Part shown: piece after piece, positions 63,303 to 63,405 of the stretch
Layout of the letters: each line of letters begins with the position of its first letter
How positions within the stretch are numbered: position 1 is the stretch's first letter
NCBI RefSeq assembly: GCF_003019035.1
Contig: NZ_CP027447.1
Length of the DNA stretch: 64,000 nt
Direction: 5' to 3' (one strand)
Source: Escherichia coli
GTDB lineage: Bacteria > Pseudomonadota > Gammaproteobacteria > Enterobacterales > Enterobacteriaceae
Program-made: the position numbers and the translations under genes
Notes under the pieces: generated by a model
Seen by the model: the letters and a program-made list of their open reading frames with translations, nothing else
What the model was told of the DNA's origin: nothing
Databases searched by the model: none

Positions 63303-63405
63303 AGAAGGAGCCTCAAATCCCTTCGCCGGCGTTATCCGGATCAGGTTCGACGGGTATTTTCTCAGCGCACGCGTCTGCGTGGCACCCCGTTGAGAACGGC
63401 GTTAG
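63303..63405 (-). ncRNA. TPP riboswitch (thi-box) in the thiBPQ leader
   Basis: Minus-strand leader contains GGGGTGCC...CTGAGA...ACCCGTCGAACCTGATCCGGATAACGCCGGCGAAGGGA, the conserved THI-element core. Confidence 0.8.

Follow-up and report, generated by a model that had tools for sequence, protein, structure and literature searches.

The DNA upstream of thiB examined here brings a leader RNA and an accessory T3SS effector gene close together, and raises the question of which regulatory RNA precedes the thiBPQ operon and how much of its control region is kept beside the accessory DNA. The original prediction placed a TPP riboswitch on the minus strand in the thiBPQ leader, between positions 63303 and 63405 of the window (the whole 64,000-nucleotide stretch of DNA that was analysed), and set the failure of a covariance-model scan for RF00059 as its refutation. 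The scan did not fail. In a cmscan search with Rfam 15, RF00059 (TPP) matched the minus strand from 63300 to 63399; the 66.1 bits exceed the gathering score of 54.3 (E = 8.5e-12), and the alignment spans the full length of the model (positions 1-105 of 105). It was the sole gathering-level RNA family match between 58000 and 64000, and rescanning of the whole 64-kb window recovered it (E = 9.1e-11) as the sole TPP element. Only one further RNA family reached its gathering score in the window, the ES003 sRNA (RF02750) at 15452 to 15504 on the plus strand (87.4 bits; gathering score 37).

The RF00059 match ends 31 nt 5' of the GTG of thiB (63269), both being on the minus strand, and the thiB open reading frame matched TIGR01276 with 642 bits (cut-off 317). 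Positions 63200 to 64000 (801 bp) are 100% identical to E. coli CFSAN061771, in which RefSeq annotates a 'TPP riboswitch' at the same coordinates. The operon regulated by the riboswitch runs in the order thiB-thiP-thiQ on the minus strand, and the start codon of thiB is reported to be GUG (PMC11487190). The features of the operon and the aptamer are as follows.

62286 to 63269, minus strand: thiB (tbpA), thiamine ABC transporter substrate-binding subunit, with a GTG start (RefSeq CDS)
63267 to 63269, minus strand: GUG start codon of thiB
60700 to 62310, minus strand: thiP (open reading frame and RefSeq annotation of the identical genome)
60018 to 60716, minus strand: thiQ (open reading frame and RefSeq annotation of the identical genome)
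63312 to 63394, minus strand: TPP aptamer proper, from P1 to P1, within the RF00059 match
63390 to 63394 paired with 63312 to 63316, minus strand: P1 helix

The interval of the original prediction thus encloses the entire aptamer, which is bounded by the P1 5' strand (63394) and the P1 3' strand (63312). Both ligand-contact motifs are present, namely CUGAGA in the pyrimidine-sensor arm and ACCUGAUCCGGAUAA..CCGGCG.AGGGA in the pyrophosphate-sensor arm, and in the cmscan alignment the aptamer cores CUGAGA and ACCUGAUCCGG...CCGGCG.AGGGA match the upper-case consensus. The same alignment showed that the optional P3a hairpin is absent from the thiB aptamer. Aligned with K-12, the stretch between -37 and +142 (numbered from the thiB transcription start) is invariant save for the P3 loop and a single base near +141, within thiB. 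The terminal P3 loop (63372 to 63375, minus strand, in the region of RNA positions 23-26) reads AGAC here, GUAC in K-12 and GGAC in EDL933, so that it differs from K-12 by 2 nt. We regard it as almost certain that this RNA is the E. coli thiB (tbpA) TPP riboswitch, also detected as the ~100-nt SroA transcript, with the mechanism and the espY2 insertion proposed below. Nothing in this is new: there are publications on the riboswitch and its mechanism as well as on the espY2 locus, RefSeq already annotates them, and the original label of known biology holds.

The start site was placed with the help of published mutants. The K-12 leader mutants G35C, G121C and U130A were described as affecting the TPP-binding site, the SD and the start codon (GUG to GAG), respectively (PMC11487190), and only with +1 at 63397 do they fall on CUGAGA, the SD GAGG and the GUG of the present sequence. 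This position gives a 128-nt 5' UTR, and it agrees with the 142-nt construct of PMC10578472, which consists of 2 promoter nt, the 128-nt UTR and 12 nt of thiB, its start being taken from Vogel et al. 2003. Read relative to this start, the promoter elements are the following.

63397, minus strand: putative thiB transcription start, +1 (G), from the published mutant numbering
63404 to 63409, minus strand: candidate -10 hexamer TACACT, at -12 to -7, with 4 of 6 consensus positions
63427 to 63432, minus strand: candidate -35 hexamer TTGCTG, at -35 to -30 with a 17-nt spacer, with 3 of 6 consensus positions, in retained backbone

The thiB core promoter is thus predicted to be a weak sigma-70 promoter with 7 of 12 consensus positions. 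The TACACT hexamer is identical in K-12-type and EDL933 genomes, and TTGCTG in K-12-type genomes. Consensus sigma-70 and terminator scans of 63200 to 63700 found nothing; the thiB promoter was missed by the consensus scan because only 7 of its 12 positions agree with the consensus. A weak promoter also fits the low activity reported for natural-promoter thiB fusions (PMC11487190). In E. coli PapRG-06-5 (L005 4001 to 4218), which has the K-12-type sgrR-thiB arrangement, megablast homology stops at query position 218 (about 63417), that is, inside the spacer between the -10 and -35 hexamers, which suggests that the thiB promoter region has diverged in this lineage.

Downstream of the aptamer, the linker and the translation start of thiB can be folded into competing structures, as listed below.

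63296 to 63320, minus strand: anti-P1/antisequestering hairpin, short form (RNA 78-102), present in the MFE folds
63290 to 63327, minus strand: anti-P1/antisequestering hairpin, extended form (RNA 71-108), our own reconstruction, -31.4 kcal/mol
63269 to 63296, minus strand: predicted SD-sequestering stem (RNA 102-129), which includes the SD
63276 to 63279, minus strand: SD, GAGG

[quoted passage not shown] Published mutagenesis and SHAPE on the K-12 sequence indicated that P1 and the antisequestering hairpin are mutually exclusive, and the regulation of thiB was reported to be chiefly translational, with a lesser effect at the mRNA level (PMC11487190). Carried over to this locus, transcription would start at 63397 from the weak sigma-70 promoter (TTGCTG-17 nt-TACACT), and TPP would bind the nascent aptamer and stabilise P1, so that the linker could not form the anti-P1/antisequestering hairpin. 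The downstream stem would then sequester the SD GAGG together with the GUG, and the translation of thiB would be repressed with a secondary drop in mRNA. Without TPP, the antisequestering hairpin would displace P1 and the SD would be accessible. The switching proposed here is taken from the published K-12 experiments and rests on sequence identity; likewise, TPP binding and control of thiB expression have been demonstrated in published work on the K-12 sequence, from which the present one differs by 2 nt in the P3 loop, and may be expected to hold here.

The 142-nt leader was folded at equilibrium with ViennaRNA without constraint and with either the aptamer or the extended antisequestering stem enforced. 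All three settings produced the SD hairpin, and the ON and OFF states were not told apart; the mean probability of being unpaired for the SD was 0.29 with the aptamer enforced versus 0.33 in the free fold. Because enforcing the aptamer does not remove the SD hairpin, the folding model adds no independent support for the switch, and the failure of an equilibrium switch fits the published stress on cotranscriptional folding.

Conservation of the helices was analysed across related leaders. The DNA-pattern scan of genome contigs was very general and returned TPP aptamers from many phyla, with about 14 usable thiB leaders among the matches listed; the sample for the pairing analysis comprised 13 Enterobacterales thiB leaders. 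CUGAGA and the pyrophosphate-sensor motif were unchanged in 13 of 13. P1, P2, P4 and P5 were pairable in 100% of cells and the sequestering stem in 94%, while the extended antisequestering stem paired in 93.8% of cells versus at most 65% with its partners slid; over all tested helices, the slid-partner controls gave 26-65% pairing. P3 was variable, with 2 compensatory pairs in columns that are poorly aligned. For the antisequestering stem, the 13 leaders contained 0 compensatory pairs, and for the expression-platform helices shuffles equalled the observed values. All three competing helices thus remain pairable across Enterobacterales; since the helices of the expression platform are nearly invariant, this amounts to conservation with essentially no covariation evidence. 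In E. albertii and Enterobacter, the P3 stems are of different composition. Outside P3, the leader is invariant.

The published experiments also bear on whether the riboswitch acts mainly on the transcript instead, through Rho-dependent termination in the leader or early thiB, with SD occlusion merely as the trigger. A Rho termination score of 3.0 has been published for thiB by ChIP-qPCR. In addition, TPP repressed transcriptional fusions 1.6- to 3.9-fold, and the mRNA of the U130A start-codon mutant was still repressed ~2.4-fold (PMC11487190). However, bicyclomycin left TPP repression of an sfGFP reporter unchanged and in vitro transcription gave the full-length product only (PMC10578472), the SD mutant G121C loses regulation (PMC11487190), and no terminator-like hairpin was found within 63200 to 63700. 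The published evidence on Rho at thiB conflicts, with the ChIP score on one side and the bicyclomycin result on the other, and we consider a mainly transcript-level action possible but doubtful.

The effect of the accessory DNA on the leader was considered from its boundaries. The 801-bp query (63200 to 64000) was searched against 5,426 complete E. coli genomes. The thiB side was matched in nearly all of them (5,398 of 5,426); query coverage of at least 80% was reached in 1,036 genomes only, and in the others the match ended at query position 235, corresponding to 63434. The island is thus carried by about 1 in 5 complete E. coli genomes. Its features in the window are given here.

63434 to 63435, no strand: backbone/island junction, -37/-38 when counted from the thiB +1, where genomes of the K-12 arrangement have the TGA stop codon of sgrR
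63435 to 64000, no strand: window-proximal part of the espY2 island from junction alignments, with 40-45% GC versus 50-60% in the flanks
63640 to 64000, plus strand: espY2 (T3SS effector of ECs0073 type, RefSeq), continuing to the equivalent of 64209, with the first 120 of its 189 codons in the window

The original prediction put the break in the backbone about 230 bp beyond the riboswitch, which was mistaken: the real break is at 63434/63435, 35 bp from the RF00059 match, and a distance of about 240 bp is that from the thiB start site to the ATG of espY2 (63640). Divergent promoters had also been proposed; the thiB and espY2 genes are indeed divergent by geometry, but the consensus scan yielded no convincing candidate for an espY2 promoter.

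The junction alignments showed that the K-12 minus strand reads GGATCCA, T, GATTGCTGG, and that the island sits between GGATCCA and GATTGCTGG. It measures 1,010 bp both here and in EDL933 (L001 6236 to 7245, the window equivalent of 63435 to 64444). The original stop codon of sgrR is replaced, and the island provides a new one (GAG TAG), with one extra codon. Genomes of the K-12 arrangement have 33 bp, and no terminator, between the sgrR stop and the RF00059 match. Neither terminal inverted repeats nor a target-site duplication were found at the island ends, where short repeats were at chance level or reflected the coding periodicity of pentapeptide repeats. The thiB riboswitch is immediately preceded by sgrR in E. 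albertii, several Enterobacter, a Klebsiella, Superficieibacter and Acerihabitans, whose fetched loci contained no espY2 homolog, and the same sgrR-thiB arrangement has been described for Salmonella. The adjacency of sgrR and thiB in other E. coli and in the outgroups implies that the 1,010-bp cassette was inserted into an ancestral junction. As judged from the alignments, this insertion keeps the predicted core thiB promoter and the riboswitch intact and replaces all DNA further upstream. The useful refinement here is the exact junction, with the accessory cassette abutting the thiB core promoter at -38.

Such a junction could in principle alter thiBPQ transcription, through loss of sgrR read-through, an A/T-rich upstream tract or silencing of low-GC DNA (e.g., by H-NS). 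The boundary at -38/-37 of the thiB promoter is compatible with this, as are the tract TTTTTTAATA at -60 to -51, a region where UP elements lie, and the change of the upstream DNA from GC-rich sgrR coding sequence to an island of 40% GC; furthermore, K-12 lacks a terminator in the 33-bp interval that separates sgrR from the riboswitch match, whereas the island has a bidirectional terminator-like hairpin (L001 7098 to 7117). However, the core promoter hexamers and the whole leader are unaltered by the island, TTTTTTAATA resembles a UP element only loosely, and about 1 in 5 complete E. coli genomes carry the island without a known thiamine phenotype. We therefore think such an effect improbable; if true, it would tie thiamine uptake to virulence-island regulation, the riboswitch itself being unchanged. 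That the ~100-nt leader transcript (SroA/sYJ20) is also a trans-acting small regulatory RNA besides its cis riboswitch role is very improbable, for although both E. coli and Salmonella are reported to make a discrete ~100-nt transcript from the thiB/tbpA start site, and a Salmonella sroA deletion to have a competitiveness phenotype, the SroA/sYJ20 papers cite no validated target and credit the transcript to the THI-box riboswitch, and nothing in the 64-kb window bears on trans activity.

The gene carried by the island was also characterised. Residues 46-54 of its translated product read LWETLRNLF, a motif of the WEX5F type, and an N-terminal motif of this type presumably marks the EspY family. 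The 189-aa protein had no match among Pfam, NCBIfam and PDB sequences. RefSeq names the product 'T3SS effector EspY2' in both CFSAN061771 and EDL933, and the O157 literature equates ECs0073 with espY2 and ECs0061 with espY1. The original description of the neighbour as EspY-like was correct, because ECs0073 is espY2 in that literature; an assignment of the gene at 63640 to espY1 was rejected on the same grounds. The gene is an espY2 ortholog, a T3SS effector by annotation. A second EspY-family gene lies at 44973 to 45731 on the plus strand; its 252-aa product shares 38% identity with EspY2 across 154 aa and contains RLWETLRHLF and a short run of LDGAT-type repeats, and the gene is probably espY1 (ECs0061 in O157).

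At the same insertion site, strain A_5 carries a longer form of EspY2 with pentapeptide repeats, encoded in a 277-aa frame (L004 4441 to 5274) whose C-terminal part is a pentapeptide-repeat domain (PF00805, E = 2.7e-22). In the locus here (L001 6441 to 7240), about 530 bp of that region are missing, and the espY2 stop codon is followed by out-of-frame remnants of the former C-terminus (…EVNLKKLTVPARTRPDCAVID*). The 189-aa espY2 found here and in O157 is thus apparently a shortened derivative. For A_5, RefSeq annotates a pseudogene and a separate CDS in place of one gene, despite the continuous frame.

Several sequence features flank the gene. Directly upstream of the espY2 SD, a perfect 5-bp inverted repeat, CTGAG-TTTTTAA-CTCAG, occupies 63609 to 63625 on the plus strand. 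The 10-mer TTAACTCAGA recurs 3' of espY2 at L001 7080 to 7089, which at such a length could be chance. The bidirectional terminator-like hairpin of the island, GAGGGGCTGGAATGCCCCTT, has T-runs on both strands and lies just outside the window (L001 7098 to 7117, equivalent to 64297 to 64316), between the convergent espY2 and sgrR; it has no counterpart between sgrR and thiB in genomes of the K-12 arrangement.

The locus can be compared with three known systems. The espY2 locus of EHEC O157:H7 (ECs0073 in Sakai, espY2 in EDL933) shares the insertion site between thiB and sgrR, the junction sequences and the 189-aa gene. DNA identity over the 801-bp query is 94.9%, the allele here having diverged from O157 by about 5%. 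The strain that carries it here, CFSAN061771, came from raw-milk cheese in Egypt. The E. coli thiM TPP riboswitch belongs to the same aptamer family and also occludes the ribosome-binding site, and the literature calls thiM and thiB mechanistically similar. Nevertheless, thiM is another locus, of which the whole-window cmscan found no copy in the 64-kb window, and its expression platform is different, as thiB has a linker-encoded antisequestering hairpin that overlaps P1 (PMC10578472). The K-12 thiB (tbpA)/SroA riboswitch (RF00059; PMC10578472, PMC11487190) is the same element, with the same locus, downstream gene order, SD, GUG and three competing helices; the two differ by the 2 nt of the terminal P3 loop (AGAC here, GUAC in K-12) and upstream of -38, the 3' end of sgrR in K-12 being replaced by the espY2 island here. 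Results obtained with the K-12 leader thus carry over directly to island-bearing strains, whereas those obtained with the K-12 'natural promoter', which includes upstream sgrR sequence, may not.
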